Source: Mobula hypostoma (taxonomy: Eukaryota). From it: 64,000 bases of DNA. Below, in pieces: positions 29,583-64,000 of the stretch. The stretch covers positions 175,338,001 to 175,402,000 of the forward strand of contig NC_086097.1 of NCBI RefSeq assembly GCF_963921235.1, read 5' to 3'. Numbering within the stretch: the first letter of the stretch is position 1; each line of letters opens with the position of its first letter. The translations under genes were made by a program, and so were the position numbers. Below the pieces are notes generated by a model. It was not told the origin of the DNA. It made no database searches and saw only the letters and a list, made by a program, of their open reading frames with translations.

Positions 29583-30432
29583 TGTTACGTACCCCATAAC
29601 TGGGTTGCCAAACCAGCAGAAATGGATCACTCAGTTGGAGTCTGGATTACTAGAACTAAGAAAGTTTTATTAAAGAAACAAGCAACACAGTACTCTAATC
29701 AAAAGGATAATAAAAGCAACAGTTCAGCAATGATAAACATACATGCACACAGAATTAAGATAACAGGATCAATCAAGCTCTATCGTTGTCTAGGGGTAAA
29801 TGATCAGTTTCAAAGTGACGCAAAGTTCAGTTCAGTTCGCAGTAATCGCTGTCGTGGGAGATGGACAGTGTGGGGGAAGGAGAGAGAGAGCAAAACGAAT
29901 GAATATTCAAGGCTTCCACACAGACCTTCGCAGTCAGCTTTCGGGCGAGTCCTTTGTGATGTCATCTGAGGTCACCGACCGTGAGCCCTCTGTTTCCAGA
30001 TACGATCGTTTCTCTGCGGTGAACCTAGCACCCAGGCAAGGGTGGACACACACCAGGTTCCCGCCAATCGTGCCTTTCCACCCTAAGCGTCTATGGCTTG
30101 ATCCCACGATCAGCCGTCCAAGAACTTCCCACCGACTTGTGAGAGACGCACCGCTTCTTGTTACCTCGGGTGTCATGTGTCTGTTGCCTTAGCGAACCTG
30201 TCCCTTTTTATCCCTCTGTTGGGGTATTGCCTGTCCATCACTTCAAACAGTTCGGGGTTCAAAGGGGGAGCCGATCTTGACAGCTCTCCTTCCTTCATTA
30301 ACATCTCCAAATGCTGCTCCATTGTTTTCCTTATCTCTCTCTCTCCTGAAGACAGGTGGCAGACCAACTGCTGATCCCACCGGTGCCAGCACAGGACAGC
30401 TAACATCTTAATCTATGTGTATTCTTGTCACA
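29583..30432. mobile_element. Solo LTR (850 bp), same family as 57394-58233
   Basis: TGTTAC...TCACA termini with TSD ctac (29579-29582, 30433-30436). The two copies share blocks such as accccataactgggttg and ggtgaacctagcacccaggcaaggg. Confidence 0.85.
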
Positions 30433-40612: not shown

Positions 40613-42040
40613 GAACTGAAGAAGTGGGAAAACAATTCTGTTTTGAGCTACAGAGAGAACGAGGGATGTCTGTGATAAGGTGGATACCAAGGTTGTCTAG
40701 GTGATACAACTAACTGGCTTTGGGGTTCTCAGTGAATGAATGATGTTGATAATGTGGTCTCTACACTGGAGAATGGTTTTACACAGCTTGAGCTGGAATT
40801 CCTGAAAGAGGACACAAACTTAATTGTAAATTATAAGGGGGAATTGTATAAATTTCTAATTATGAAAAAAGGAGGGGTGTAAGGAAAGAGGAGAGGAATG
40901 GGATAATTGAAAGAGCTTTATTAAAGATCCAGCCCAGCAAAATGAACCCTCCACTCATCACTGGCTGCATATCCCCAGTATAAAAGCCACTTTTTTATCT
41001 TTTTATGTCATTCTGCAGTGAACATTTGCAGTCAAAATGGGCCACTCCTTTTCCTGTTAAACATATGAGGTGCTCTCACTAAACCTGTTTGCCTTTAAGT
41101 CTTCTCTAACTCGTTTGCCCAAGTGCAGTTGGACCCTTCTGTGCCAATCTCAAACACCCCTATCTCCTTGACTGATCCACCTAATCATTACTAAAGAGCT
41201 GACAATCATTAACCTCTATTAACTCATTGTAAGTCCCTGCTGAAATTTGGAAAGCCATTTCTGATTAAAGTTCATATGCATTTGCTTTGGTAATGCTTCT
41301 CCACAAACACAAACAGATAAGCAAAAATGCTGAACTGACATTTAAAATACTGCTTACAAAAGAAAGGGTTGAAATTGTCCTCAGTTATTACAGATCAATT
41401 TAGAATTACCATAGAGGAAGAAACTTCATAAAACTACTGATGCTGAAAATCTGAATGATTTAGCAAGTCAGGCAGCATCTGAGGAAACAGTGGAAAAGTT
41501 AACATTGCATATAGAAGACCCTTCAGTAGAACCGTGAAAGACAGAGAACAAGTTTGTTTAAGTTGCAGAGGAAGTGGGGTAGGGTTGGATGGAACAAAGG
41601 AAATGTCTGTGACATGTTGAGGTCTGGCTGTTGGAGAAATAAGTTCCAGGGTTATCCAACCAATGGGTTAATGGGGCAATGCTTTCCTGTCGATTTAGAC
41701 AAGAATATTCACTGGCTCAGATCATAGAATTGAAACAATGCAGATTAACCCATTGAGTACAGAATATTTTATGTAATTTTTGCATTTATTTAGGGCCCAA
41801 TATAAGTTTCTATTTTCAGTTTTATATACAAGAGAACTTCTGAAGCTGATTGCATTATGCTGGCATTATTGAGTACATCTCATACCAGTAATGATCACTA
41901 TATCGATAAGGTAATCCTAAAGTAGAACAGTAACTGCTGGTGAACACTCAGCAAGTTGAGCAGCATCTGTCGAGAGAGAAACAGAGTTGACACGACTGGC
42001 CATAGGCCATTCCTCACAATGGGAGAGTGAGAAGACAAGT

Positions 42041-43126
42041 ATGTTTCAGTATTCACAGTGAGAGGGACTGTGATGTTTGTTTCAGTATTCACAGTGAGAG
42101 GGGCTGTGATGTTTCAGTATTCACAGTGAGAGGGATTTTGATGTTCGTTTCAGTATTCACAGTGAGAGGGGCTGTGATGTTTCAGTATTCACAGTGAGAG
42201 GGACTGTGATGTTTCAGTATTCACAGTGAGAGGGACTGTGATGTTTGTTTCAGTATTCACAGTGAGAGGGGCTGTGATGTTTCAGTATTCACAGTGAGAG
42301 GGATTTTGATGTTCGTTTCAGTATTCACAGTGAGAGGGGCTGTGATGTTTCAGTATTCACAGTGAGAGGGACTGTGATGTTTCAGTATTCACAGTGAGAG
42401 GGACTGTGATGTTTCAGTATTCACAGTGAGAGGGATGGTGATATTTGCTTCAGTGTTCACAGTGAGAGGGACTGTGATGTTTGTTTCAGTATTCACAGTG
42501 AGAGGACGTGTGATGTTTGTTTCAGCATTCACAGTGAGAGGGCGTGTGATATGTGTTTCAGCATTCACAGTGAGAGGGCGTGTGATGTGTGTTTCAGCAT
42601 TCACAGTGAGAGGGCGTGTGATGTTCGTTCAGTATTCACAGTGAGAGGGATGATGATGTTTGTATCAGTACACACAGTGAGATGGACTGTGATGTTTGTT
42701 GCAGTATTCACACTGAGAGGAACTGTGATATTTCAGTTTTCACAGTGAAAGGGATTGTGAAGTTCTTTCAGTATTTACAGTGAGATGGACTGTGATGTTT
42801 CAGTATTCACAGTGATCGCGACTGTAATGTTTGATTCAGTATTCACAGTGAGAGGGATTTTGATGTTTGTTTCAGTATTCACAGTGAGAGGGACCGTGAT
42901 GTTGCAGTATTCACAGTGAGAGGGATTTTGATGTTTGATTCAGTATTCACAGTGAGAGGGGCTGTGATGTTTCAGTATTCACAGTGAGAGGGATTTTGAT
43001 GTTTGTTTCAGTATTCACAATGAGAGGGGCTGTGATGTTTCAGTATTCACAGTGAGAGGGATGGTGATATTTGCTTCAGTATTCACAGTGAGAGGGATTG
43101 TGATGTCTCAGTATTGACAGTGAGAG
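42041..43126. repeat. Satellite/minisatellite block 1, 36/32-bp unit gtgatgttt(gttt)cagtattcacagtgagagggact
   Basis: Direct tandem repetition. Confidence 0.95.
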
Positions 43127-43129
43127 GCA

Positions 43130-43860
43130 TCCAATCAACTTTCCCAACATTGATTGGAACTTTAGTGCACAAGGCTTGGATGGTGTGAAATTTGTTAGGT
43201 GTATCCAAGAAGGATTCTTGACACAAGATATAGATAGCCAGCATGAGAAGAGGCTATATTAGATTTAGTGCTGGACAAAGAACCAGGTCAGGTGTCCAAT
43301 CTCTCAGTGGGTGAGCATTTTGGAGACAGACTCCCTGACCCTTACTATAAACTTAGAGAAGGATAGGGGTATACAGTAAGCGAAAGTTTTACATTGGGGG
43401 AGAGGAAACAAAATCCTATTAGGAAGAAACTGGGGAATATAAATTAGGTATTCATCTACTGAGGGAAATACACATCAGGAATGTGTAGGTTGTGTAGGGA
43501 GCACATGCGAGGTGTTATGGATAGGTTTGTCCCATTAAAAAGCCTATCAATAACAAACCACCACAGGGCAGGATGGTGGAGTGAAGGATCCATGGTTGAC
43601 AAGAGATGTGGAACATCTAGCTGAGATGAGGAAAAAAGCATGCTTAACTTTTACCAAACAGGGATGACACAGGGCTCTAGAAGGGGTACAAGGTAACCAG
43701 GAAGGAGCTGAAAAATGGACCTAGGAGACCTAGGAGATGGCCAGGGTAGGTGTTGGCAAGCAGGATTGAGGAAAACCTATATGTGAAGAAAAGCAAGATG
43801 GTTATTGTGAGGGTAGGTCCAATCAGCGATCGAAGAGGAAATAGGTGTCTGGAATTAGAG
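43130..43860 (+). mobile_element. Degenerate internal CR1 fragment (EN end/linker) inside the satellite
   Basis: Resembles the family A/B region (ggatggtgtgaaatttgttaggtgtatccaagaagg...gagcattttggagacag). Confidence 0.65.
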
Positions 43861-43863
43861 AAT

Positions 43864-46800
43864 TTATTTACAGTAAGAGGGATCTCATCGCTTGCTTCAG
43901 TATTCACAGTGAGAGGGCCTGTGATGTTTGTTTCAGTATTCACAGTGAGAGGGCCTGTGATGTTTGTTTCAGTATCCGCAGTGAGAGAGATGGTGATATT
44001 TGTATCAGTATCCACAGTGAGAGGGATGGTGATGTTTGTATCAGTACACACAGTGAGATAGACTGTGATGTTTGTTTCAGTATTCACAGTGAGAGGGCCT
44101 GTGATGTTTGTTTCAGTATTCACAGTGAGAGGGCCTGTGATGTTTGTTTCAGTATTCACAGTGAGAGGGCCTGTGATGTTTGTTTCAGTATCCGCAGTGA
44201 GAGAGATGGTGATATTTGTATCAGTATCCACAGTGAGAGGGATGGTGATGTTTGTATCAGTACACACAGTGAGATAGACTGTGATGTTTGTTTCAGTATT
44301 CACAGTGAGAGGGCCTGTGATGTTTGTTTCAGTATTCACAGTGAGAGGGCCTGTGATGTTTGTTTCAGTATTCACAGTGAGAGAGCCTGTGATGTTTGTT
44401 TCAGTATTCACAGTGAAAGGGACTCTGATGTTTGTTTCAGTACTCAGAGTGAGAGGGTCTGTGATGTTTGTTTCAGTATTCACAGTGAGAGAGATTGTGA
44501 TGTTTCTATCAGTATTCACAGTGAGAGGGACTGTGATGTTTGATTCAGTATTCACAGTGATCGGGACTGAGATGTTTGATTCAGTATTCACAGTGAGAGG
44601 GACTGTGATTTTGCAATCTGTATTCAGAGTGAGAGGGACTGTGATGTTTGATTCAGTGTTCACAGTGAGAGGGACGGTGATGTTTGTTTCTGTATTCAGA
44701 GTGAGATGGACTGTGATGTTTGTTTCCGTATTCACAGTGAGACGGATTCTGATGTTTGTTTTAGTATTCACAGTGTCAGGAACATTGATGTTTCTGTATT
44801 CAGAGTGAGAGGGACTGTGATGTTTGTTTCAGTATTCACAGTGAGAGGGATTCTGATGTTTGTTTTAGTATTCACAGGGTCAGGAACATTGATGTTTCTG
44901 TATTCAGAGTGAGAGGGACTGTGATGTTTGTTTCAGTATTCACAGTGAGAGGGATTCTGATGTTTGTTTTAGTATTCACAGTGAGAGGGACTGTGATGTT
45001 TGTTTCAGTATTCACAGTGAGAGGGACTGTGATGTTTCAGTATCCACGGAGAGAGGGACAGTGATACTTGCTTCAGTATTCACAGTGTGAGGGACTGTGA
45101 TGTTTGTTTCTGTATTCACAGTGAGATGGACTGAGATTTTTGTTTCAGTATTCACGTTGAGAGGGACCCTGATGTTTCAGTATTCATAGTGAGATGGTCT
45201 GTGATATTTCAGTATTCTCTGTTAGAGGGATTGTGATGCTTGTTTCAGTATTCACACTGAGAGGGAATGTGATGTTTCAGTTTTCACAGTGAGAGTGACG
45301 GTGATGTATGTTTCTGTATCCACAGTGAGAGGGACTGTGAATTTTGTTTCAGTATTTACAGAGAGATGGACTGTGATGTTTCAGTATTCATAGTGAGAGG
45401 GACTGTGCTGTTTGTTTCAGTACTCACAGTGAGATGGACTCTGATGTTTGTTTCAGTACTCAGAGTGAGAGGGATTGTGATGTTCGTTTCAGTTTTCACA
45501 GTGTGAGGGCCTGTCAAGTTGGCTGCAGTATTCACAGTGAGAGAGATTGAGATTTTTCTATCAGTATTCACAGTGAGATGGATAGTAATATTTGTTACAG
45601 TGTTCACTGTGAGAGGAACTGTGATGTTTCAGTATTCAGAGTGAGAGGGACTGTGCTGTTTGTTTCAGTACTCACAATGAGAGGGACTCTGATATTTGTT
45701 TCAGTACTCAAAGTGAGAGGGAGTGTGATGTTTGTTTCAGTATTCACAGTGAGAGGGACTGTGATGTTTCAGTTTTCACAGTGAGAGGGATTGCGATGTT
45801 TCAGTATTCACTGTGAGAGGGACTGTGAGGTTTGTTTCAGTATTCACTCTGAGAGGAACTGTGTTGTTTCAGTTTTCACAGTGAAAGGGATTGTGAAGTT
45901 CATTTCAGTATTTACAGTGAGATGGACTGTGATGTTTCAGTATTCACAGTGATCGCGACTTTGGTGTTTGATTCCGTATTCACAGTGAGAGAGACCATGA
46001 TGTTTGTTTCTGTATTCATAGTGAGATGAACTGTGATGTTTGTATCAGTATTCGCAGTGAGAGGGACTGTAATGCTTGTTTCAGTATTCACACTGAGAGG
46101 GACTGTGATGATTCAGTTTTCACAGTGAGAGGAACGGTGATGTTTGTTTCTGTATCCACAGTTAGAGGGACTGTGAAGATTGTTTCAGTATTTACATTGA
46201 GAGGGGCTGTGATGTTTCAGAATTCATAGTGAGAGGGACTGTGCTGTTTGTTTCAGTACTCACAGTGAGAGGGACTCTGATGTTTGTTTCAGTACTCAGA
46301 GTGAGAGGGATTGTGATGTTCGTTTCAGTTTTCACAGTGCGAGGGCCTGTCAAGTTTGCTGCAGTATTCACAGTGAGAGAGATTGTGATGTTTCTTTCAG
46401 TATTCATGGTGAGAGGGACTCTGATGTTTGATTCAGTATTCACAGTGAGAGGGATTGTTAGGTTTTTTTCAGTGTTCACAGTGTGATGGATAGTAATAGT
46501 TGTTTCAGTATTCACTGTGAGAGGAACTGTTATGTTTCAGTATTCAGTGTGAGAGGGACTGATGTTTGTTTCAGTATCCACAGTGAGAGGGATGGTGATG
46601 TTTGTATCAGTACACACAGTGAGATGGACTGTGATGTTTGTATCAGTATTCGCAGTGAGAGGAACTGTGATGTTTCAGTTTTCACAGTGAAAGGGATTGT
46701 GAAATTCCTTTCAGTATTTACAGTGAAATGGACTGTGATGTTTCAGTATTCACAGTGAGAGGGATTGTGATGTTTAAGTATTCACAGTGAGAGGGACTGT

Positions 46801-48417
46801 GAAGTTTGTTTCAGTATTCACAGTGATCGCGACTGTGATGTTTGATTCAGTATTCACATTGAGAGGGACTATGATTTTGCAATCTGTATTCACAGTGAGA
46901 GGGACTGTGATGTTTAATTCAGTATTCACAGTGACAGGGATTGTGATGTTTATTTCAGTATTCACAGTGAGAGAGATTGTGATGTTTCTATCAGTATTCA
47001 CAGTGAGAGGGACTGCGATGTTTGTTTCAGTATTCACAGTGAGGGAGATTGTGATGTTTCTATCAGTATTCACAGTGAGAGGGACTGTGATGTTTGATTC
47101 AGTATTCACAGTGATTGGGATTGTGATGTTTGTTTCAGTATTCACAGTGAGGGGGACTGTGATTTTGCAATCTGTATTCACAGTGAGAGGGACTGTGATG
47201 TTTAATTCAGTGTTCACAGTGAGAGGGACCGTGATGTTTGTTTCTGTATTCATAGTGAGATGGTCTGTGATGTTTGTTTCCGTATTGACAGTGAGAGGGA
47301 TTCTGATGTTTGTTTTAGTATTCACAGTGACAGGAACATTGATGTTTCTGTATTCACCGTGAGAGGGACTGTGATGTTTGTTTCAGTATCCACAGTGAGA
47401 GGGACGGTGATGTTTGTTTCAGTATTCACAGTGAGATGGACTGTGATTTTTGTTTCAGTATTCACAGTGAGAGGGACATTCATCTTTGTTTCAGTATTCA
47501 TGTTGAGAGGGACCGTGATGTTTCAGTATTCATAGTGAGATGGTCTGTGATGTTTCACTATTCTCTGTGAGAGGGATTGTGATGTTTGTTTCAGTATTCA
47601 CACTGAGAGGTACTGTGATGTTCGTTTCAGTATTCACAGTGAGATGGACTGTGATTTTTGTTTCAGTATGCACAGTGAGAGGGACGGTGATGTTCTTTCA
47701 GTATTCACACTGAGAGGGACCGTGATATTTCAGTATTCATAGTGAGATGGTCTGTGATGTTTCAGTATTCTCTGTTAGAGGGACTGTGATGCTCGTTTCA
47801 GTTTTCACACTGAGAGGGAATGTGATGTTTCAGTTTTCACACTGAGAGGGAATGTGATGTTTCAGTTTTCACAGTGAGAGGGACGGTGATGTTTGTTTCT
47901 GAATCCACAGTGAGAAGGACTGTGAAGTTTGTTTCAGTATTTACAGTAAGATGGACTGTGATGTTTCAGTATTCATAGTGAGAGGGTCTGTGCTGTTTGT
48001 TTCAGTACTCACAGTGAGAGGGACTCTGATGTTTGTTTCAGTACTCAGAGTGAGAGGGATTGTGATGTTCGTTTCAGTATTCACAGTGCGAGGTCCTGTC
48101 AAGTTTGCTGCAGTATTCACAGTGTGAGAGATTGTGATGTTTCTTTTAGTATTCACGGTGAGATGGACTTTGATGTTTGTTTCAGTATTCACATTGAGAT
48201 GGATAGTAATATTTGTTTCAGTATTCACAGTGAGAGGAACTGTGATGTTTTAGTACTCAGAGTGAGAGGGAATGTGATGTTTGTTTCTTTATTCACAGTT
48301 AGAAGGACGGTGATGCTTGTTTCAGTATTCACATTGAGATGTACTGTCATGTTTTTTGCAGTATGCACAGTGACTGGAACTCTGATGTTTCAGTATTCAC
48401 CTTCAGAGGGACTGTGA
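43864..48417. repeat. Satellite block 2, same 36/32-bp unit, with higher-order duplications
   Basis: Direct tandem repetition, with diagnostic variant units recurring at fixed spacings. Confidence 0.95.
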
Positions 48418-51400
48418 GGTCATTTTTCTCGGTGGTTGATAGGGATAGGACTGCGCAAGCGCCTGCAAGTCACTCCGTGAGTCAGCGTGAGTATTTAAAA
48501 GAGAGCAGTTTGACTGAGCGGGCGACGTTGTACTGGGCAACTGAGTAGAGGGAGACAGAGTAGGAAGGCTTTGGCGAGCAGAGGCTGAGGATGAGCTTCA
48601 TTCCAAGTGAGGACCACTCAAGAGTCTTCAGCGAGGAGGTTGAGGGAAGAGACTACGCCACAGTAGGAGACGGTGAAAAGTGGTGAAGAGATGACCGCTA
48701 GGCTGATCCAGTGTACTGCGTGCATGATGTGGGAAGTCAGGGACACTGATAGTTCCTCTGGATCCTACACCTGTGGAAAATGTGTCCAGATTCAGCTTCT
48801 GAGGGACCGTGTTGCAGCATTGGAGAGGCAACTGGGAGACCTTAGGTTCATCCGGGAAAACGAGAGTTTTCTGGACAGGACCTACAGTGAGGTCATTACA
48901 CCAAGGATACCGGAAGAGAGTAGGGGGGCGACGACGAGTAAGGAAAGGATGCTTGAAGTACAGGAGACCCCGGTAGATGTGCCTCTCATAAACAGGTTCT
49001 CCCTCTTGGAAGCTGTTGCGACAGAAGACTGCCAACCTGAGAGGCGGACGGGTCTGCGAGTCAACAATTGGTGCTGAAGCAAAGCCGAGGAGACAGACGT
49101 CAGGCAGAGCCGTGGTAGTAGGGGACTCCATAGTGAGAGGTACAGAAAGGGGTTTCTGCAGCAACAGGTGGGATTTAAGGATGGTGTGTTGCCTCCCTGG
49201 TGCCAGGATCCAGGACGTCACGGACCGATTACAAGGAATCCTCAAGGGTGAAGTTGAACATTCGGAAGTGGTGGTGCATGTCAGCACAAATGACGTGGAG
49301 AAGAAGACGAAAGACATCCTACAGCGCGACTTCAGAGAACTCGGAAGAAGGCTGAAAAGCAGGACTTCCAGGGTGGTTATCTCCGGTTTGCTTCCAGTTC
49401 CCCGTGCTGGACTGGTCAAGAACAGGGAGATAATGGATCTGAATGTGTGGCTGAGGAACTGGTGCAGGAAGCAAGGATTTACATTCTTGGACCACTGGGG
49501 TATGTTTCGCGGTAAGGATGAATTGTACAAAAGGGACGGGTTGCACCTTAATAAGCGGGGCACCAGCATTCTGGCAGGCAGGTTTGCCTCTGCAACACGG
49601 GGGTGTTTAAACTAAGTAGTGGGGGAGAGGGGACGAACTGGAAACATAAGGATGGAGATAAAGGGAAAGTGAGAATAAGAAAAGTTAAGAATGACAACAG
49701 AATCAACAGAGCAGAAAGCTCAAGAAGGGATCGTACAGTATGGCCAAGTGATACAGGAATTGATATGGGAGGTGAGGGGAGTAATGAATTAAAAGTATTG
49801 TATATGAATGCACGGAGTATAAGAAATAAAGTGGACGAGCTTGAGGCACAGTTGGAAATTGGTAAGTATGATGTTGTGGGAATAACAGAGACATGGCTTC
49901 AAGTGGACAGGGCCTGGGAAATGAATATTCAAGGGTATACGTCCTATCAAAAGGACAGACTGATATGTAGAGGGGGTGGGGTGGCTTATTGGTGAGGAAT
50001 GATATTCAGTCCCTTGCGAGGGGGGACATAGAATCAGGAGACGTAGTGTCAGTATGGATAGAACTGAGAAATTCTAAGGGTAGAAAGACCCTAATGGGAG
50101 TTATCTACAGGCCCCCAAACAGTAGTCTGGATGTAGGGTGTAAGTTGAATCAAGAGTTAAAATTGGCATGTCGCAAAGGTAATGCTACAGTTGTTATGGG
50201 GGACTTCAATGTGCAGGTAGACTGGAGGAATCAGGTTGGTGCTGGACCCCAAGAAAGGGAGTTTGTGGAGTCCCTCCGAGATGAATTCTTAGAACAGCTT
50301 GTACTGGAGCCTACCAGAGAGAACGCAATTCTAGATTTAGTGTTGTGCAATGAACCGGATTTGATCAGGGACCTCAAGGTAAAGGAGCCATTAGGAGGTA
50401 GTGACCATAATATGATAAGTTTTAATCTACAATTTGAGAGGGAGAAGGGAAACTCGGAAGTGTCAGTATTACAGTTGAACAAAGGGAACTATGGTGCTAT
50501 GAGGGAGGAGCTGGCCAAAGTTCAGTGGAACAATACCCTAGCAGGGATGACAGTGGAACAGCAATGGCAAGTGTTTCTGGGAATAATGCGGAAGGTGCAG
50601 GATCAGTTCATTCCAAAGAGAAAGAAAGATCCTAAGGGGAGTAAGGGGAGGCCATGGCTGACAAGGGAAGTAATGGACAGCATAACAATAAAAGAGAAGT
50701 ATAACATAGCAAAGATGAGTGGGAAGCCGGAGGATTGGGAAACATTTAAGGAGCAACAGAAGGTAACTAAAAAGGCAATACGCGGAGAAAAAATGAGGTA
50801 CGAAGGTAAACTAGCCAAGAATATAAAGGAGGATAGTAAAAGCTTATTTAGGTATGTGAAAAGGAAAAAGTAGTTAAGACCAAAATTGGGCCCTTGAAGA
50901 CAGAAACGGGTGAATTTATTATGGGGAACAAAGAAATGGCAGACGAGTTGAACAGGTACTTTGGATCTGTCTTCACTAGGGAAGACACAAACAATCTCCC
51001 AGATATAATAGTGGCCAAAGGACCTAGGGTAATGGATGAACTGAAGGAAATTTATATTAGGCAGGAAATGGTGTTGGATACTGTTGGGTCTGAAGGCTGA
51101 TAAGTCCCTGGGACCCGATGGTCTGCATCCCAGGGTACTTAAGGAGGTGGTTTTAGAAATCATGGACGCATTGGTAATCATTTTCCAATGTTCTATAGAT
51201 TCAGGATCAATTCCTGTGGATTGGAGGGTGGCTAATGTTGTCCCTCTCTTCAAGAGGGGAGGAAGAGAGAAAACAAGGAATTATAGACTGGTTAGCCTGA
51301 CATCGGTGGTGGGAAAGATGCTGGAGTCAATTATAAAAGATGAAATTATGACACATCTGGATAGCAGTAACAGGATCGGTCCGAGTCTGCATGGATTTAC

Positions 51401-52659
51401 AAAGGGGAAATCGTGCTTGACTAATCTTCTGGAATTTTTCGAGGATGTAACTATGAAAATGGACAAGGGAGAGCCAGTGGATGTAGTGTACCTGGACTTT
51501 CAGAAAGCCTTTGATAAAGTCCCACATAGGAGATTAGTGGACAAAATTAGGGCACATGGTATTGGGGGCAGAGTACTGACATGGATTGAAAATTGGCTGG
51601 CTGACAGAAAACAAACAGTAGCGATTAATGGGTCCCTTTCAGAATGGCAGGCGGTGACCAATGGGGTACCGCAGGTTCAGTGCTGGGACTGCAGCTGTTT
51701 ACAATATATATTAATGATTTAGATGAGGGAATTAAAAGTAACATTAGCAAATTTGCCGATGACACAAAGCTGGATGGCAGGGTGAAATGTGAGGAGGATG
51801 TTATGAGAATGCAGGGTGACTTGGACAGGCTGGGTGAGTGGGCAGATCCATGGCAGATGCAGTTTAATGTGGATAAATGTGAGGTTATCCACTTTGGTGG
51901 CAGATTATTATCTAAATAGAGTCAAGTTAGGAAAAGGGGAAGCACAATGAGATCTAGGTGTTCTTGTACATCAGTCATTGAAAGCAAGCATGCAGGTACA
52001 GCAGGCAGTGAAGAAAGCTAATGGCATGCTGGCCTTCATAACAAGGGGAATTGAGTGTAAGAGCAAAGAGGTCCTTCTGCAGCTGTACAGGGCCCTGGTG
52101 AGACCACACCTGGAGTACTGTGTGCAGTTTTGGTCTCCAAATTTGAGGAAGGACATTCTTGCTATTGAGGGAGTGCAGCGTAGGTTCACAAGGTTAGTTC
52201 CCGGGATGGCGGGACTGTCATATGTCGAAAGATTGGAGTGACTGGGTTTGTATACTCTGGAATTTAGAAGGCTGAGAGGGGATCTTATTGAAACATGTAA
52301 GATTATTAAGGGATTGGACACGCTGGAGGCAGGAAGCATGTTCCCGCTGATGGGTGAGTCCAGAACCAGAGGCCACAGTTTAGGAATAAGGGGTAGGCCA
52401 TTTAGAACGGAGTTGAGGAAAAACTTTTTCACCCAGAGAGTGGTGGATGTATGGAATGCTGTGCCCCGGAAGGCTGTGGAGGCCAAGTCTCTGGATGCTT
52501 TCAAGAAAGAGATGGATAGAGGTCTTAAAGATAGCGGAATCAAAGGTTATGGGGATAAGGCAGGAACTGGATACTGATTGTGGATGATCAGCCATGATCA
52601 CAGTGAATGGTGGTGCTGGCTCAAAGGGCCGAATGGCCTACTCCTGCCCTATTGTCTAT
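48418..52659 (+). mobile_element. Full-length CR1 LINE (5' UTR, ORF1 zinc-finger/leucine-zipper plus SGNH esterase, ORF2 EN-RT), frameshifted
   Basis: ORF1 CTAC...CGKC and VGDS...STND...DGLHL (48673-49615). ORF2 YMNARS, ITETWL, GDFN, GSDH, GPDG, FADD, LEYCVQFW (about 49800-52577). Tail (ctattgt)2; TSD tgtga at 48413-48417 and 52660-52664. Confidence 0.93.
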
Positions 52660-53030
52660 TGTGACATTTGTTTCAGTATTCACAGTGAGAGGGACTGTGA
52701 TGTTTGTTTCAGTATTCACAGTGAGAGGGACTGTGATGTTCGTTTCAGTATTCACAGTGAGTGTGGCTGTGATGTTTGTTTCAGTATTGACAGTGGTAGG
52801 GACTGTGATGTTCGTTTCAGTATTGACAGTGAGAGGGACTGATGTTTATTTCAGTATTCACAGTGGGAGGGACTGTGATGTTTCAATATTCACAGTGAGA
52901 GGGACTGTATTGTTTTCTTCAGTATTCACAGTGAGAGGGACTGTGATGTTTGTTTCAGTATTCACAGTGAGAGGGACTGATGTTTATTTCAGTATTCACA
53001 GTGGAGGGGTTGTGATGTTTGTTTCAGCTT
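52660..53030. repeat. Satellite block 3, continuing after the CR1
   Basis: Same unit, resuming in register after the TSD. Confidence 0.93.
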
Positions 53031-54845
53031 TACGATGCGAGGGACCTTCTCATTTGCTTCAGTATTCTCCATTGCAGGCTGATTGAGAAAGTCAGGAGGT
53101 GTGGGATCCAGGGAAACATGTCTGCCTCGATATAGGGCTGTCTTGCCCATGGAAGGCGGAAGGTAGTAGCAAACATAGAGAACTGTGCCTGGAGGATGGT
53201 GACCAGAATCTGTTTGAGGGTATGGAGACCAGGTCATTGGGTGCATTTAAGGCAGAAGTTGATAGGTTCTTGATTAGACAGAGTGTGAAGGGTAATGGGG
53301 GAGGAGGCAGGAGACTGGGGTTGAGAGGGAAAATGGATCAACCATGACGAAATGGCAGCCCAGACTCGATGGGCTTCTGTCTCTTATGGTCTGTGTAAAA
53401 CTCTGGTTAGACCACAGTCTTGGTCACCTCATTAAAGAAAGGATGTGGTAGCTTTAGAGAGGGTGCAGAGGAGATTTGCCAGTCTGCTGTCTGAGTTAGA
53501 GGGCATGGCTTGAGCAAGTTAGGGCTTTTCTGTTTTGAGTGAAAGGTGATGAGGTGAATTGGTAGATGTGAACGAGATCACAAGAGGCATAGTTCGAGTG
53601 GATAGCAAGAGACTTTTTCTCGGGTGGAAATAGCTAATACTAGGAGATATAATTTTGAGATAATTTGAGGAAGGTACGTTATGTCAGGGGTACATTATTT
53701 ATGTAATGCACGCTTTGCCTAGGGGCATGATCTCAAGGTGGGTAGACCCCTGCCCGGCCAAACTTTAGAACTCCCATTTGGGTGGATGCTGTGTGAGGTG
53801 TCCCCTGTGTCAAATCAGTACCCCAAAATAACAAACAGTACACAATATGCGGTTAAACAAGTAAGATTTTATAACTCTTACTTGGACTGTGAGACTAGTA
53901 GAGAACAAAATATAAAATAGAAAGTACCAGGAGTTTATTTAAACAGTTTGTGCACAATTTGTTGGAGCTCACGGTTTCCCTTCGCTGATTCCTCCTTCGA
54001 TCCTTGTCGACCTTCGGCTCCCGCCGGAGCCCGAAGGGTCGGGCAGCCCACTACTCCTCATGTCGTGTCTTCTCTCTTCATTCCCCTCACGCCTTCTCCC
54101 CAAAGCCCGGGAAAACCAATGGCTTTCACTCAAACAAGAAAGAATAACATCTCACCCATTGGTTAGCAACTGAATTCCAAAGTCCCGTTATCTCTACCTA
54201 TAACCCAAACGTGCTGCTACAGAGAATCCATTACCTCAGCAATTAACATTACAGAGAAGCCATTTTATTGTAACACTACAGAGAAGCCATTTTATTAGCC
54301 TTAGCAGTTAACATAAAAGAGAAACCTTTACACTCTCCCCCCCACCAAATTTAGTCATGTCCTCATGACATTGAGATAATTCGCCAACCCCTTCCTGTAA
54401 ACACAAAAACCCAATCCAGGTACCAACAGTGACATACCTCTCCAAACAATAGACCTCACACCCTGTTCCCCAGGCGCTACATCGGCCAACCTATCCGGGA
54501 GTTTCCTAATCCTCTGAGACCTCTGTACCCCCTCACCTAACCCTTCAGGCTCAGACACTACTGGGGATACTTCGGGTCTACTTGCCGAATCCTCTCTCAA
54601 TCTATCACTCATGCCCCCCTGCAACTCGGAGCTCCCTGTCTCGTGATCAGGCCCCGCTGTCTCTCCTTCAGATCCTGCAGTAACCCAGGCTGCCCACAGC
54701 TAGCCACCCTCCCCCCACCCACTTCACCTGACTTAGTGGGAGAAGGGCCAGGAATCTCTTCCTCAAACAAAGGGAAGTTAGCGAAAGGCAGCATGTACCA
54801 CACCTCCATCTCATCATTCTTTGAATCCGTATTCTTCTCCTTTTC

Positions 54846-55818
54846 CTCGATTTGTGGCTGCTGTTTGGTTTTCTCCAACCTGGAGCACTTGGCCTGGGCT
54901 GCCTTTGCAGCCTCTTCAGCCCCCTGCAATCGAGACGTCAGCTTCTTCTTGGACTCCTCCAACTCTCGACGCAGTCGCAGCAGTTCTGACTCACACTTCT
55001 TGTCCATCTCCATCTGGGACGCAGTTACTCCACCAGCTTCTTCCAATCTATCAGTAAGGCCTTTCAGTTTCCTGGTAAGATCACCTCGCTGTTTCTCGAC
55101 CTTGGTTCTCATAGATCGCTCTGCATGCAACTCCTCCTTCAGTTCCTCAACCCAGGCCTGATATTCCTTAATCTTCCTCTAAAGAGCGCAGTTAAAGATT
55201 GTTCATCCTCTAGTTTAGCTTATCCTATAGATAAGCTGAACTTATCTCCAGCTCTTTCTTCTTAATGACTTCTTCCAGGCCAACTTTCCGTTTTTCCATT
55301 TCATTTAGGCTCTCAATGGTCATCTTCAGGTCCCCTTCAAGCTTCCACTTCCCTCTTCCAAGATCTGTCTGCAATTGCTTCTCCTCCTCTGAATTGTATT
55401 CAGACTCCCCTCTCTGTGCTCTCAGTTTTCTGTGGGCCTTAGTCAGACAGCTTTCTTTGTCTTCCCTAACTTGCAAGTCTTCCAATCTGTTCTGGATCAA
55501 TTTCTCCAATTTCTGCTTATCCTTTCGAAGGTTGGTTATTGTTTCATCTCTCTGGTTTAATTCATCAGTAAGTAACCACAGTTTCTGCTCTGAATTCTGT
55601 TTCTCTGTCCCCACTTTGACGCGCGTGGACTCCAATTCTTCAATGTTTGTCCCAAGATTGCGGCCCTCAGTCTCCAGTCTGCATTTCTGAGCGTTCAGTT
55701 CAGCGGTGCAAATCTCCTCCCTCAGCAGTCTCTCTTTCAGATCGGCGACCTGGGTTTCCAGCTCCAGGTTCACCTTCAGGTGCTGCGTGCAATGCTGCTC
55801 AATGTCAGCCCGACTCTC
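54846..55818 (-). pseudogene. MYH16: Captured intronless myosin heavy chain rod fragment (MYH16-like) replacing the integrase core
   Basis: [70 protein letters not shown]...[21 protein letters not shown] and [15 protein letters not shown]...LEKTKQ are sarcomeric myosin S2/LMM motifs. MYH16 is the closest paralog as I recall the sequences. Confidence 0.8.
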
Positions 55819-57393
55819 CCGATCCTTGTCCATGTCCACCCCCTCAGGCACCTGTCGTGACAAAACATCCACATCGATGTTCCGGCTCCCCGGCCGGTAC
55901 TTCAGGCTGAAATCATTGGCGGACAACACTGCCAACCTCGGATGGCCCGTGGCATCCAGTTTCACCGAGGTCATGATATGAGTTAGGGGATTGCTGGCCG
56001 TCTGCACCTCAAAATTAACCCCGTAGAAAGAGTCACTCAGCTCATCCACTCACCGCCCGTTCCAATGCCAGGAAGTTCAACTTCTGCGTTGGGTAATTTC
56101 TCTCGGAGGGCGTCAAACTCCGGCTGACAAACTCCACGAGTCTCAACCCGGTGCCTTAATCCTGTTATGGGACGCCCCCTAAACTGTCTCAGCTGTCCAC
56201 AGAAACCAGCACCAGCGCCTGGAGCAGCAACTCCTTTAGCGATTGAGAAGCTTCCTCACATTTTACATTCCACTTCTGTCCAAAAAGCCTCGACGGGTTT
56301 AAATATTCTCCACCCTCCGGTCCTTTATTCCCTCTCCCTGTCTTCCCCATGCCCCGCTGGAAGGTTGCAGGGGCTCCGGATATGCCCAGGGGCATCTTTT
56401 CCGACTGGAAGAACCCCAGGGGACATATAACTGTCGTCTTCTGTTTGTCGGCCTCACTCATCGGGATCTGGTAACGTCCACTCCTCAGATCCAGTACATT
56501 AAACTACCTTGCCGTACTCGGACAGACCAGCGCCTCTTCAACTCTCAGGACCGCATACTGACCAGGGACGATGCGCCTGTTCAGAGTCCTATAAACCACA
56601 TACATGCGTACCTCCCCTTTCTTCTTCCTGGCCACTACTCGTGGGGACTCATAGAGGCTTTGAAACCCAGGGATGATCCGCAGCCTCCACATCTGCAGGG
56701 GCCAGTCGCCGCGACCTCTCCCCAAACGGGGTGTCCTCAGCCATCAACTCTCCCCCCTCATGGTATTCCGGAACGCCCACTATGAGGGCTTCTCTTTCAG
56801 ACACTCCGGGAAATTTTCGAGTCCCCATCACTCTCGCTACTTTCCTGGGCCGTACCACCATTGACTTCGACTGGGTGAACCACACAGTCCCTTGTTTAAA
56901 TTCGGTACCCAGCCCGCTCCTGCCACACACATCCTCAAACGCAGCTCGAAACACTGGGTGAATGGACAATGTCCCCGAACAGTTCTCACCTGCCTTCTTC
57001 TTACAGGCCCCCATGAGCCTCCTCACCAGCCGGTTGTTGGTCCCCTCCAGAATTGAAACGCTGCCCATCTCAACAGTGTCCGGACACATCAGCACTAACG
57101 ACTCCCGGCCCTCAAACACCCCCACATCAGTCTCCCAGAACTGCAGTTTCATTGACCAATAACCGTCGTATGGATAATCACCAGCACTGATACCCCAAAA
57201 CTCCAGTGCCCTGAATGGTGTCAAGGGTAAATGCTTCGGATACCAGTTGTAAAATGCATGGTATAGTAACTTGACCTGCGACCCGGTGTCGAGGATGGCT
57301 TTAGCATAGCTTCTATCTATCCGTAACGACACACCGGAGTGTGGTCCCACTAAGCCTTCATGAATAGGGTCCTTTTCTTTCAGGAGTTCCTTG
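55819..57393 (-). pseudogene. Gypsy pol remnant: protease, RT, RNase H
   Basis: [88 protein letters not shown]. Confidence 0.85.
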
Positions 57394-57641
57394 TGTTACC
57401 TACCCCGTAACTGGGTTGTCAAACCAGCAGAAATAGAACACTCGTTGAAGTCTGTGATTACTAGAAACTAATAAAGTTTTGTTAACAAAAATAAGTAATG
57501 CAGTACACTAACCGCAAGGATATAAATGTAACAGGTTAGCAATGATAGTATACACATATACACAGAAATAGGGTAATAGGAATCATCCAAGCTCTATCGC
57601 AGTCTAGGTGATCAGTCTTAAGGTGAAGCAGAGTTTGTACC

Positions 57642-57703
<62 letters not shown>

Positions 57704-58233
57704 CAGTTGAGGTTACAGGCAAACCTTTCGATGCCTTCTGATCCCACTACGGTCACTGACTGTGACCCCTCCGTTCCGGATGCGACCGTTCTTCCGTGGT
57801 GAACCTGGCACCCAGGCAAGGGCGGACACACAACAGGTCCCCACCGGTCATACCTTTACACCCTGTGAGCCTCTGGCCGATTCCCGCGAATCGATCCTTC
57901 AAACTCCCACCAACTTGTGGGGCACAATGCTCTTTCCAGGGTCTCATGACGTGTGTCTTGTGCCTTAGCAAACCCGCTATTTTTATCTCTCGATGGGGTA
58001 TCGCCTGCCCATCAAACTTCACACTTCCTATTGTCTCAGCAGGATTGTTAATGAACAGTTCAGGTTCAAAGCAAACTGTCTGTGGCAGACGCCAACATAA
58101 TGAATTATGTGTCTCTCTCTCGTTATCTCTCTCTTCTCTCTTATTAACATTTTGAATGGTTTTCCGTTGTCTCTCGTTATCTCTCTCATTAACATCATCC
58201 GTTCTGCAGCTCTGCTTGACTTCACACATGACA
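57394..58233. mobile_element. Solo LTR (840 bp) nested in the Gypsy gag region, containing (GA)n at 57646-57698
   Basis: TGTTAC...TGACA termini with TSD cttg (57390-57393, 58234-58237); homologous to 29583-30432. Confidence 0.88.
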
Positions 58234-59048
58234 CTTGGTACATTGCTGGGAACGTGTTCCCCCAGAGACACCAGGCCGTTAACCCACTGGGTCTCCTCTA
58301 AGTTTCCCAGCACCCCTCTGATCAGCTGAACAAATGAGGTAGGGGCTATCTGATCCATCCTTAACTTATCCACCTCAGCTGCCTGACTGATCCCCCGACG
58401 CTGCAACCAATTTAGCTGTCTCTCTAGCTGAAAAAGATATGCTGAAAGCTTTTCCCCATTTTTCTGACTCATGTTTTGAAACCCCACCCCAAGCTGCATT
58501 TCGCTCCCAGTCGAACCAAACGCCTTGTCCCGCGCTTGCAAATAACTGACAGCTGTCACTACGGGGTAATGGAACCTGCCCGTTCTAACAACATCAGCAG
58601 CCCACCAATTCAAACTTCCAACCAATCTCTGTCACTTTTTGTCATCCAAGCACAGCCCCTCATCTGACAACTGAGAGGTCTGTTCCACCCCCGTCTCGTA
58701 CACCTTTGCCCCTTTAGGGATGGGTACTATTCCACAAACCAGGCAGAGCCTGCCATAGCTGGAACACTTATTCACCAAAGAAACAAAAATGGACACTACC
58801 TCAAAATTCTCACTCTTCACTGGGGGATGAGGACTAATTAACCATACCAAATCTGACCACTCTTTCCCCTCACTCCTAACAGTATGGACAGCCCATGACC
58901 CGGCCTCATCTGGGGCACCAGTAGACACTGGAAATCCCACCTCTGTGACGTCAGCACTAGTCTGCACTAAAGCAAGGTCTGAGCCCACCATTTTATCAAA
59001 CTTTCGCACTACGATTTCAACTTTTCCAACAGCTTTAACCATATTCAA
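58234..59048 (-). pseudogene. Gypsy gag remnant (PNMA/Ma-like capsid)
   Basis: SYGRLCLVCGIVPIPKG..YETGVEQ and AFGSTGS...QKNGEKLSAYLFQLERQL resemble PNMA-type Gypsy gag. Stops and frameshifts are present. Confidence 0.7.
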
Positions 59049-60003
59049 AAATCAAATTACATTACATCCAGGGTACGACTATCCACCCTGCTCAACCTGT
59101 TACTAACCACAATTCCACAGAGGCACACCAGCACTGATTTATGCAGGGCGATCACATAGTATCCCACAGAATCAAATCGATGGACGAGCCCCCACATTGT
59201 AACACTCGCCTTGCCTAGTGGCATGATCTCGAGGGTGGTAACCCCCCTGCCCAGCCAAACAGTAGAACTCCCCTTTGGGTGGATGCTGCATGAAGTGTCC
59301 CCTCTGTCAAATCAGTACCCCAAAATAACAAACAGTACACAATATGTGGTTAAACAAGTAAGATATTATAACTCTTACTGTGACTATGAGACTAGTGGAG
59401 AACAAAATATAAAATAAAAGGTGCCAAGAATTTATTTAATCCGTTCGTGCACAATTCATTGGAGCTCACAATTTCCCTTCACTGATTCCTCCTTCGATCG
59501 TCGTCAATCCTCGGCTCCCGCCAGAGCCCGGAGGGTTGGGCAGCCCACCGACTCCTCAAGTCACGTCTCCTCTCTTCATTCCCCTCGTGCCTTCTCCCCA
59601 AAGCCCACGAAAACCAACAGCTTTCACACAAACAAGAAAGAATAACATCTCGCCCATTGGTTAGCAACTGAATTCCAAAGTCCCGTTATCTCTACCTATA
59701 ACCCAAACGTGCTGCTACAGAGAACCCATTACTTCAGCAGTTAACATTACAGAGAAGCCATTTTATTGTAACACTACAGAGAAGCCATTTTATTAGCCTT
59801 AGCAGTTAACATAAAAGAGAAACCCTTACATTTACATCAAGAATCATGGGTGTGTGGAACACCATGGCCAGTGTGGTGGTAGTAGCAGATACATTAGGGA
59901 TATAAAAGAGGTTCTTAGATAGGCACATGGATGATAGAAAAATGGAGGGTTTTGTCAGAAAGGAGGATTAGGTTGACCTCAGAGTAAGTTAAAAGGTCGG
60001 CAC

Positions 60004-60490: not shown

Positions 60491-63255
60491 AATTTTTTTT
60501 ATTTCAAAATATACTTTATTCAAAAATAAATATATACAATAAACCATTCAATAACTTTCCATCCTTTACATACGTTTCCATTATACACAGTACATATCCG
60601 TATTTTTAGCCACCCATGTGGCACTCCAGTAGTTCAGCTTACCATATCATTGTTGAGGGGTATACTCCCCACCCCCCGACCCCTACCACTCCCACGGGTG
60701 GAGAAACCTATACTGTGGTTCTTCCTCACCGGGCCCTTGCGGTGGCTGCACCGAGTTTCAGTGCGTCCCTCAGCACGTACTCCTGCAGCCGAGAATGTGC
60801 CAGTCGGCAGCATTCTCCCACGGACATCTCCATGTGCTGGTAGATCATCAAGTTTCGGGCCGACCAAAGAGCGTCTTTCACCGAATTGATGATCTGCCAG
60901 CAGCACCGGCCGTTGGTCTCCGTGTGTGTCCCCGGGAACAGCCCGTAGATCAGAGAGTCCTCTGTTACGCAGCTGCTGGGGATAAAACGTGACACTAGCC
61001 CGTCCATCCTCCTCCACACCCTCTTTGCAAACTGACAGTGTGCAAAGAGGTGGGTCACAGACTCCTCCTCACTGCAGTCCTCCCGTGGGCAGTGGGGTGC
61101 GGAGACGACGTTCCGGGCGTACAGGAGGGCTCTGACTGGGAGGGCCCCTCTCACCGCCAGCCAGGCGAGGTCTTGGTGCCTGTTGGTGAGATCTGGCAAT
61201 GAGGCATTTTGCCAGATGAACTGGACAGTCTGCTCAGGGAACCACCCCACTGTGTCCATCACGTCCTTCTCCTGCAGTACCTGCAGGACACTACGTGCCG
61301 ACCACTGCCTGATGGCCCTGTGGTCAAAGGCGTTCTCCTGGAAGAACTTTGCTACGTAGGACAGGTATGGTGGCAACGACCAGCTGACTGGGGCGTTGCG
61401 CGGGAGTGGGGCCAGACCCATCCTTCGTAGCCAGGGCGACAGGTGGAACCTGGGCACATAGTGGTACTTGGTGCCCACATACCTGGGTTCTACACACAAC
61501 CTGATGAAGCCACATACAAAGCTGGCCATCAGGGTGAGGGCGACATTGGGGACGTTCTTGCCCCCGTTGTCCAGGGACTTGAGCATGGCGGTCCGTCTCA
61601 CCCGCTCCATCTTGGATCCCCAGACGAATCTGAAGACAGCCCGGGTGATTTCCGAGCTGTAGGAGCGGGGGACAGGCCACACCTGCGCCAAGTACAGCAG
61701 CCCTGAGAGCATCTCACACCTGATGACCAGGTTCTTGCCTGTTATCAACAGGGAGCGCCCTCCCCACAGTCCCAGTTTCTGTTTCACCTTGGCAGTCCGC
61801 TCCTGCCAGTTCTTGTTGCACGCCTCAGCCCCTCCGAACCAGATCCCCAACACCTTCACGTGGTCAGACCTGATGGTGAAGGGGACGCTGGATCGGTCGG
61901 GCCAGCTGCCGAAGAGCATGGCTTCGCTCTTCGTGCGGTTGACCCTGGCCCCCGACGCTAGCTGGAACTGTTCGCAGGTGCCAATCAACCTGCGAACTGA
62001 CCTCGGATCAGAGCAGAAGACAGTGACGTCGTCCATGTACAGGGAGGTTTTCACTTGGGTCCCTCCACTGCCTGGCAGCGCCACCCCTCTTATGCCCTCA
62101 TCCCTCCTGATGGCTTCCGCAAAGGGTTCTATGCAGCAGACAAACAAAACAGGGGAGAGGGGACAGCCCTGCCTGACTCCAGACCTGATGGGGGAGCTGT
62201 CTGTTTCCCACCCGTTGACCTGGACTGCACTATGGATGTCTGTGTAGAGCAGTCTAATCCAATTCCGGATTCCCTCCCCAGATCCCATTTTGGAGAGCAC
62301 GTCCGCCATGTACGTGTGCGATATCCTGTCGAAGGCTTTCTCCTGGTCCAAGCGGACCAGGCAGGCGTCCACCCCCCTGTCCTGCACGTAGGTGATGGTG
62401 TCCTTCAGCAGCGCGAGGCTGTCTGAGATCTTCCTGCCCGGTACAGCACAGGTTTGGTCTGGGTGAATCACCTGTCCTAGAGCAGACTTGACCCTGTTGG
62501 CAATAGCCTTGGACAGGATCTTGTAATCCACATTCAGGAGAGAGATGGATCTCCAATTTCCAATGTCCTCCCTTTCCCCCTTCTGCTTGTAGATGAGGGT
62601 GATGATGCCTTTCCTCACGGACTCTGACATACTGCCGGCCAGAAGCGTAGCGTTGTATACTTCCAGCAGGTCTGGGCCCATCCAGTTCCACAGAGCCGAG
62701 TACAACTCAGCCGGTAAGCCGTCGCTTCCGGGAGTCTTACCCGACCCAGAGGAATGGATGGAGCCTGTCAGCTCGTCCAGGGTCAGTGGCTGATCCAGAC
62801 TCTCCCGCTTGCCGTCGTCTAAGACCTGCGTGATAGACGACAGGAAGTTGCGGGAGGCTGTGGATTCTGTGGCCTTTTCGTCGTACAGACCGGCATAGAA
62901 GGACTTGCAGATCCTCAGTATGTCGGTCTGCGAGGACGCGACTGAGCCGTCCTCTTCCTTAAGGTTGTGGATCACAGAGCTCCCCCTGTGCACCTTTTGG
63001 AAGAAGAAGTGTGAGCACGTCTCGTCCTGCTCCACGGTTTGGACCCTTGATCGGAAGATGATCTTGGAGGATTCGGCGGTGAGGTGCTGGGCTTGCCGGC
63101 TCTTCACCTCTCGCAATTCCTCCCTGACATCCACCCCCTTCGACTGCAGAAGGAGAAGTTGCTGCAACTCTGTCTGGAGTTTACGCAGTTCACTCTGCTC
63201 CTGCCTTGCTTTCTGGATACCCTTGTGGATGAAGAACCTCTTAATGTTCTCCTGA
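60491..63255 (-). mobile_element. Tx1-type (L1 group) LINE, 5'-truncated, with poly(A) tail
   Basis: Long open ORF2, GC-rich, with a 3' UTR carrying AATAAA motifs and an A-tail (T run at 60493-60500 on the plus strand). Confidence 0.88.
60726..63167 (-). CDS. Tx1-type ORF2 fragment: reverse transcriptase plus C-terminal cysteine-rich zinc knuckle (no endonuclease)
   Basis: PGSDGL, NWRSISLLNVDYKIL, DQEKAFD, GVRQGCPLSP, YMDD, CPREDC..EESVTHLFAHC; 813 uninterrupted codons. Confidence 0.85.
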   Translation of the reverse strand: MQQLLLLQSKGVDVREELREVKSRQAQHLTAESSKIIFRSRVQTVEQDETCSHFFFQKVHRGSSVIHNLKEEDGSVASSQTDILRICKSFYAGLYDEKATESTASRNFLSSITQVLDDGKRESLDQPLTLDELTGSIHSSGSGKTPGSDGLPAELYSALWNWMGPDLLEVYNATLLAGSMSESVRKGIITLIYKQKGEREDIGNWRSISLLNVDYKILSKAIANRVKSALGQVIHPDQTCAVPGRKISDSLALLKDTITYVQDRGVDACLVRLDQEKAFDRISHTYMADVLSKMGSGEGIRNWIRLLYTDIHSAVQVNGWETDSSPIRSGVRQGCPLSPVLFVCCIEPFAEAIRRDEGIRGVALPGSGGTQVKTSLYMDDVTVFCSDPRSVRRLIGTCEQFQLASGARVNRTKSEAMLFGSWPDRSSVPFTIRSDHVKVLGIWFGGAEACNKNWQERTAKVKQKLGLWGGRSLLITGKNLVIRCEMLSGLLYLAQVWPVPRSYSSEITRAVFRFVWGSKMERVRRTAMLKSLDNGGKNVPNVALTLMASFVCGFIRLCVEPRYVGTKYHYVPRFHLSPWLRRMGLAPLPRNAPVSWSLPPYLSYVAKFFQENAFDHRAIRQWSARSVLQVLQEKDVMDTVGWFPEQTVQFIWQNASLPDLTNRHQDLAWLAVRGALPVRALLYARNVVSAPHCPREDCSEEESVTHLFAHCQFAKRVWRRMDGLVSRFIPSSCVTEDSLIYGLFPGTHTETNGRCCWQIINSVKDALWSARNLMIYQHMEMSVGECCRLAHSRLQEYVLRDALKLGAATARAR

Positions 63256-64000
63256 ACCAGGAAAGGCCAGCTTTAAGGAGATTCTACTCAAATAGGACAG
63301 CAGAAATGCCCTGCCTCGGAACTCCCTCCTCCCAATTACTTTATGTGCACCTACATATCGAATAGCTACCTTATCATTCCTAATGGCGATCTACAAGACG
63401 CTAAGCAGAGAAATTGCCCAGAAATTTGAATATCAGTTTTTTAAAAAAATGCAGCTTTGTTCGTATGCTTATTGTTCTTTCCCTGCTGGCCAATCACATT
63501 CCTTGTCTTCACCCTTTCATTCTCTGGTAGGTAAAAACCTCTCTCTTTCCAGTGCCACCAGCAGGGTAAATGTATCGGGCTCACAGGCCTCTCATTAATG
63601 TACAGGAAGGGGCTAGGATGGGTCTCTGTTTGAATGACTGCAAGGATCTCTCCCTGCTGGCAACCTCTTCTGAATCACTGAATCACTGGCCTGACTGCTG
63701 AAAGGGCCCAGCTCATTTGTATTAACTCTCCATTCAGGTTGGGGGTGACTGCCTTCAGATGCCGTGTGTGATCTTTCTCAATCTGCCATGCCATCGAAGT
63801 TGTGAAACCTACTGCCTCAGCTTTAACTTAAATTCCTCCCCATCTATTTTCCCCAATATATTTTCTATTCTATGCTGTTGAACTAATCATCTACCTTCAC
63901 CAAACAGCCTTCATTACGGAGTACCGGTACCATCACACTTCACCACGCTATTCACGGCTTTCTGTCACGCTTCTGGTGTCTTCTGCCTTTGCATTTCCTG

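Follow-up and report, generated by a model that had tools for sequence, protein, structure and literature searches.

A Gypsy-derived element family of rays with a captured myosin rod in the place of integrase

In the window, i.e. the whole 64,000-nucleotide stretch of Mobula hypostoma DNA analysed here, an LTR element on the minus strand contains a piece of a muscle gene. An earlier note, made from the sequence alone, had proposed that the integrase of a Gypsy retrotransposon was replaced here by a spliced, MYH16-like myosin heavy chain rod. The locus raises the question of which gene the rod came from, how it was captured, and whether it played any part in the spread of the element. We consider it nearly certain that the capture took place and that the chimera became a family; what favoured that family is a matter of lower probability, to which we return below.

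Architecture of the element and its insert

The element spans two LTRs (59830-59198 and 54332-53702, with 89.9% identity across 633 columns) and has Ty3/Gypsy termini, with a TG...CA LTR pair, a short TSD, a PBS and a PPT. Homologues of Gag, PR, RT and RH follow one another in Gypsy order. The features, numbered by position in the window, are:

59831..59834, minus strand: TSD TAAA, 5' side
59198..59830, minus strand: 5' LTR with TG...CA ends, K2P distance to the 3' LTR 0.107
59182..59194, minus strand: PBS-like stretch of 13 nt, TGGGGGCTCGTCC, presumably of tRNA-Pro type
58234..59042, minus strand: gag remnant, PNMA-like and frameshifted (PF14893, E 1.2e-14; 30% to the Xenopus Gypsy P0143)
57394..58233, minus strand: nested 840-bp solo LTR of a different family, CAAG duplicated at its ends
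56652..57393, minus strand: protease remnant (LDTG motif) and linker
55825..56695, minus strand: RT remnant without the YxDD core, tether and RNase H remnant (PF00078, E 1.5e-5)
54846..55824, minus strand: captured intron-free myosin rod at the integrase position, from the C68 MYH16-related paralogue
55187..55235, minus strand: frameshift and stops, private to the window copy
54950..54959, minus strand: 10-nt overlap at the point where 624 nt of the donor mRNA were lost in frame
54355..54845, minus strand: pol tail, common to the integrase-bearing sister, frameshifted in the window copy's lineage
54333..54345, minus strand: polypurine tract
53702..54332, minus strand: 3' LTR
53698..53701, minus strand: TSD TAAA, 3' side

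The description of this locus as a complete LTR element holds for the LTRs, TSD, PBS-like stretch and purine tract, but not for the interior. The window copy is decayed: the YxDD core of RT is deleted, a solo LTR found in no other copy is nested within the element, and the myosin carries a private frameshift. The frame at 56049-55225 leads, as first noticed, from the end of RNase H into myosin, here 197 amino acids matching MYH7 898-1089, sarcomeric myosin S2 (E 8e-29). Past the break, the frame at 55178-54609 matches MYH7 1106-1182 and about 1369-1422 before entering the pol tail; a second myosin stretch does follow a frameshift, but that frameshift exists only in the window copy. The span given for the rod was right except at its start, which lies at 55824 and not 55818, and the supposedly uninterrupted copy is intron-free but lacks the 624 nt lost at 54950-54959. 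Top protein matches of the insert are myosin-16. Integrase was not detected inside the element (best E 2.9, whereas a sister element serving as positive control gave 1e-104), in agreement with the proposed exchange. Since it is missing after RH here and present in the sister (L013/L036), the element is a non-autonomous Gypsy derivative.

Other repeats surround the element. A minus-strand frame of 848 codons near the 5' LTR (60726-63272) is presumably a Tx1/L1-like LINE, and we take many further fragments in the window to be CR1-like and Penelope-like. A 32/36-nt repeat forms long arrays at 41900-48500 and 52600-53000, with frames that are stop-free on both strands. The nested solo LTR holds a (CT)n run and has relatives at window positions 29583-30248 and in introns of the donor gene (L032, L033).

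The donor gene and the capture junctions

Canonical MYH16 (G000:C36) was considered as donor and rejected: the insert spans seven of its intron positions without gaps, and these positions agree, yet only 322 of 564 columns are identical (57%). Against the same four exons of a divergent MYH16-related paralogue at G000:C68, the window insert is identical in 516 of 564 columns (91%). Best matches are myosin heavy chains, and a protein tree groups the eight element rows with an intron-bearing gene of Narcine as their sister (99/97), apart from the clade of canonical MYH16. The Narcine protein, which is short and has exon-skipping isoforms, is closer to the insert than canonical MYH16; its orthologue in Mobula hypostoma is the intron-rich gene at C68, at about 14.48-14.74 Mb. 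Going by these comparisons, the donor is the C68 paralogue and not canonical MYH16, which refines the original attribution to a MYH16-like gene.

Four donor exons were fetched and carry splice signals at their ends, while no genomic position was found for four further, shorter exon stretches. The element lacks a donor intron of 3 kb as well as the 87 kb and 92 kb that separate donor exons, in keeping with the mRNA source that had been suggested. A 3.7-kb RNA-guess contig from a different species traverses the donor exons and stays myosin past 54845; it also contains the 624 nt missing from the element. Whole-protein searches overlooked the donor because family copies fill the candidate list, and exon-sized DNA queries located its long exons but not its short ones.

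The C68 gene is of interest in its own right. It covers 260 kb (G000:C68:14480496-14737195; L031, L033-L035) and adjoins the fast myosin cluster. Proteins of its kind from Narcine and killifish (P0128, P0139) are annotated as motor-less and have an N-terminal EPE.EDLDWD motif in common; the killifish protein stands at the base of the tree on a long, unsure branch, and in an atlas search it gave nothing beyond generic coiled-coil matches. Upstream of the C68 donor no motor domain was matched among 65 scored of 487 candidates, and no longer homologues of the Narcine N-terminus were found. This may be a conserved rod gene, or rod isoform, that has no motor. The available text of a study of MYH16 biology (PMC6402096) shows no paralogue of this kind. 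Beyond the known clusters, myosin head or distal rod sequence was matched over long unbroken stretches (G000:C63:65110016, C73:26273943, C18:48745520 and C50:30689110), which are either large exons or further retrocopies.

The manner of capture can be read from an integrase-bearing sister (L013 8421-10000 and L036), a decayed element split by a LINE-like fragment and situated immediately upstream of a copy with myosin. It has the RNase H end and the tail in common with the myosin-carrying element. Between the matching flanks there are 1493 nt in the sister and 974 nt in the window copy, indicating replacement and not insertion: about 1.5 kb of integrase sequence was lost, and the myosin was joined in frame at both ends. 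At the 5' junction, sister and donor agree at 9/11 nt; at the 3' junction they share about 3-4 nt. This microsimilarity is judged against the one decayed sister. From such marks we infer capture by template switching, the route named in the earlier note; they fit the model in the available text of Tan et al. 2016 (PMC5131818). Capture by splicing at the 5' end of the insert is a minor possibility: an exon begins right at the junction, but no GT is present in the sister at this point.

Copies, deletions and the reading frame

The chimera is a family with at least 149 loci. All 149 candidates scored in a protein search matched (of 1240 candidates), as did all 40 scored in a DNA search (of 3149). 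We examined the 37 best-scoring copies, comprising the window copy, 20 found by DNA search and 16 by protein search. The 5' junction recurs in five other insertions and the 3' junction in ten, which rules out misassembly, and six distinct 4-bp TSDs were found among 14 copies tried. These results support the suggestion of a non-autonomous family integrated in trans, in which the integrase-bearing sisters would be the mobilising elements. LTR pair distances of 0.076-0.126 in six copies (seven copies at this step had no match to the PPT pattern) indicate that the sampled insertions are old, and all copies examined are decayed. Lineages can be told apart by common deletions and LTR subtype, with deletions in gag, PR, RT, RNase H and myosin. 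Many copies retain the YxDD region that the window copy has lost, so the pol of the founder was fuller than that of any examined copy. A shrunken copy, L024 (G000:C5:66.90 Mb), has a 716-codon stop-free frame leading from gag/PR/RT remnants into myosin, its catalytic domains truncated.

Annotations of Mobula hypostoma, M. birostris, Hypanus and Hemitrygon include chimeric proteins, frequently named as myosins; P0122, P0124, P0132, P0137 and P0278 are family copies labelled as myosin or MYH16 genes in ray annotations. RNA-guess contigs from runs of four organisms span family junctions, although such contigs may include DNA and are no proof of transcription. Rfam gave no match.

We then compared the deletions that the copies have in common. 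Between gag and the end of the myosin, the 25 deletions common to at least three copies (6 in gag, 4 in PR-RT, 8 in RT-RH and 7 in myosin) are all net multiples of three, in lists made by hand and with adjacent gaps netted (1+24+35, 1+98, 7+28-8). Among the events seen in copies ascertained by DNA search, 20/20 keep the frame; the remaining five come from protein-search copies. Under a microhomology null, 37-58% of pairs fall in frame, giving P values of about 1e-6 to 2e-5 for the excess, and 1e-6 against the highest null (58%). Single-copy deletions of at least 9 nt are in frame in only 8/20 cases (P 4e-6 against 25/25), in a hand-made list with one approximate entry and three further large deletions omitted, two in frame and one not. 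A control in the distal tail gave 0/6 in frame, although it is not size-matched, tail events being small and coding events large. In the LTRs, 8/23 common indels are multiples of three, as are 6/7 of those of at least 9 nt, in LTR subtypes that align poorly. Four small frameshifts are common to 2-4 copies, mostly non-sisters in the tree; counting them lowers the figure to 25/29 (P 1e-3 against the 58% null). Uncompensated small frameshifts that mark lineages number none before the myosin end and six in the short distal tail. In the PR-RT linker, the basal copy L013 deletes 98 nt and the expanded lineages (L016-L028) 99, which could reflect a frameshift compensated later or a private change.

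Do the amino acids show the same constraint? Substitutions were counted against the donor exons and divided into lineage-level changes (52 N, 17 S, 0 stops) and private ones (212 N, 74 S, 17 stops). N:S was 52:17 on lineage branches against 229:74 for private changes (P 1.0). Stops amounted to 0/69 at lineage level against 17/303 in private changes (P 0.051, or 0.40 with scattered common changes added). Omega on lineage branches was 0.5-3.2, with no deficit relative to private changes. Between lineages A and D, replacement changes were not in short supply in gag, PR, RT or myosin (P 0.16-0.83), and there are two fixed stop-class differences whose side of origin is not assigned. In the N:S comparisons of the examined copies, no purifying selection on rod or gag was seen. 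Thus, the protein sequence of the family is not conserved and its amino acids drift neutrally, while the reading frame is conserved in the sampled lineages; selection on the frame is probable, judging from the deletion counts. The Pol-coiled-coil fusion once envisaged is upheld as a founding in-frame reading frame, but the coiled-coil sequence bears no sign of selection.

Competing explanations and known systems

The reading we favour, with a probability of roughly two thirds, is that selection for translation in cis acted on this non-autonomous family, by analogy with the mouse element IAP 1Δ1, and that the myosin served as in-frame filler. A double template switch during reverse transcription would have exchanged the integrase for a partial spliced mRNA of the MYH16-related paralogue, and integrase-bearing sisters would have mobilised the chimeric copies in trans. 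Retrotransposition then spread the chimera, its lineages deleting different pieces of gag, PR, RT, RNase H and myosin. Master copies may have been favoured if ribosomes could translate the RNA from gag almost to its 3' end, either through a cis effect like that of IAP 1Δ1 or, as an alternative of our own from general knowledge, through escape from nonsense-mediated decay. The amino-acid identity of the rod would be irrelevant.

The main competitor holds that the chimera was a pure passenger for which LTRs and packaging signals sufficed, the in-frame deletions being a product of codon-phased microhomology and of curation. The neutrality of amino acids in every region, the in-frame share of microhomology pairs (up to 58%), the large LTR indels that are also mainly multiples of three and the decay of all copies agree with it. 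It does not account well for common deletions that exceed even the highest null, for the contrast with single-copy deletions, or for lineage-defining frameshifts being confined to the distal tail, and we think it unlikely, though it deserves real weight. A functional coiled coil, in which a fusion of Gag remnant and myosin dimerises or docks on the particles of autonomous elements and so favours its own RNA, would explain why the three capture-level junctions are all in frame and why the rod core is in frame in all sampled lineages; many substitutions are compatible with heptad function as well. The omega values, however, show no constraint on lineage branches, different parts of the rod are deleted in different lineages, and retention of the rod is ascertained, the copies having been found via a myosin search. 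We consider this role very improbable. A later processed pseudogene in one LTR element, or an assembly error, is already refuted: identical junctions occur in many insertions with differing TSDs, integrase sequence is replaced rather than interrupted, and neither poly(A) nor a duplication flanks the myosin. A bolder version of selection for translation, which we regard as quite doubtful, is that by filling the integrase gap in frame the capture made a cheater element with an RNA translated all the way through and perhaps a coiled-coil fusion that docked on helper particles, and that a muscle-gene fragment thereby became a successful repeat in myliobatiform rays over tens of millions of years.

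The capture mechanism itself is already known from animal LTR-mediated retrocopies (Tan et al. 2016, PMC5131818). As in the cases given in the available text of that study, a partial mRNA replaces part of the internal ORF with microsimilarity at the switches, the LTR pair is retained, and retroposition is repeated and frequently in frame; intron loss relative to the parental gene, a replaced interior, microsimilarity at both switches and independent TSDs were all found here. Secondary spread of those cases is described there as reaching few sites, older vertebrate ones being mostly disabled single loci, whereas the ray family occupies at least 149 loci, has split into several deletion lineages and has relatives in three ray genera. 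In maize Bs1 and in the capture of human FAM8A1 by HERV-K, host exons likewise lie inside an LTR element with common switch points (as far as covered in PMC5131818), but Bs1 is given one to five copies, and the ray family has one parental gene and far more copies. IAP 1Δ1 is non-autonomous and requires Gag and Pol in trans, and its in-frame gag-pol fusion ORF is reported to aid retrotransposition in cis (available text of PMC6466679 and PMC7411935). The ray family resembles it in that the fusion frame is retained in the lineages that spread, according to the hand-listed deletions. IAP is, in those sources, a retrovirus-like ERV with a single deletion and no host sequence; the ray family is Gypsy, with a host-derived filler, many serial in-frame deletions and a cis effect that is presumed by analogy. 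Vertebrate Gypsy elements with PNMA-like Gag (Xenopus P0143, P0284) have the same Gag-PR-RT-RH order at 30-62% identity, and the sister has its integrase downstream of RH; the family differs from them in carrying myosin instead of integrase, and the window copy in having no RT core.

Our literature search, with subscription journals, Repbase and Dfam outside its scope, found no description of a myosin-carrying LTR family in rays. New are how many copies there are, that the family persists across ray genera, that the donor is an unexpected one, and that the frame is kept without its sequence. A vertebrate host-gene capture by an LTR retrotransposon has here reached hundreds of copies and not a handful. 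The family explains why ray annotations contain short, spurious "myosin" and "MYH16" gene models. It also draws attention to a MYH16-related gene of fishes that has been little noticed and may lack a motor. The many deletion lineages of the family, independent of one another, amount to a natural experiment on whether translation in cis is a requirement for non-autonomous LTR elements, and the combination of an open frame with a drifting protein hints that translation, and not myosin itself, may have aided the spread of the family.
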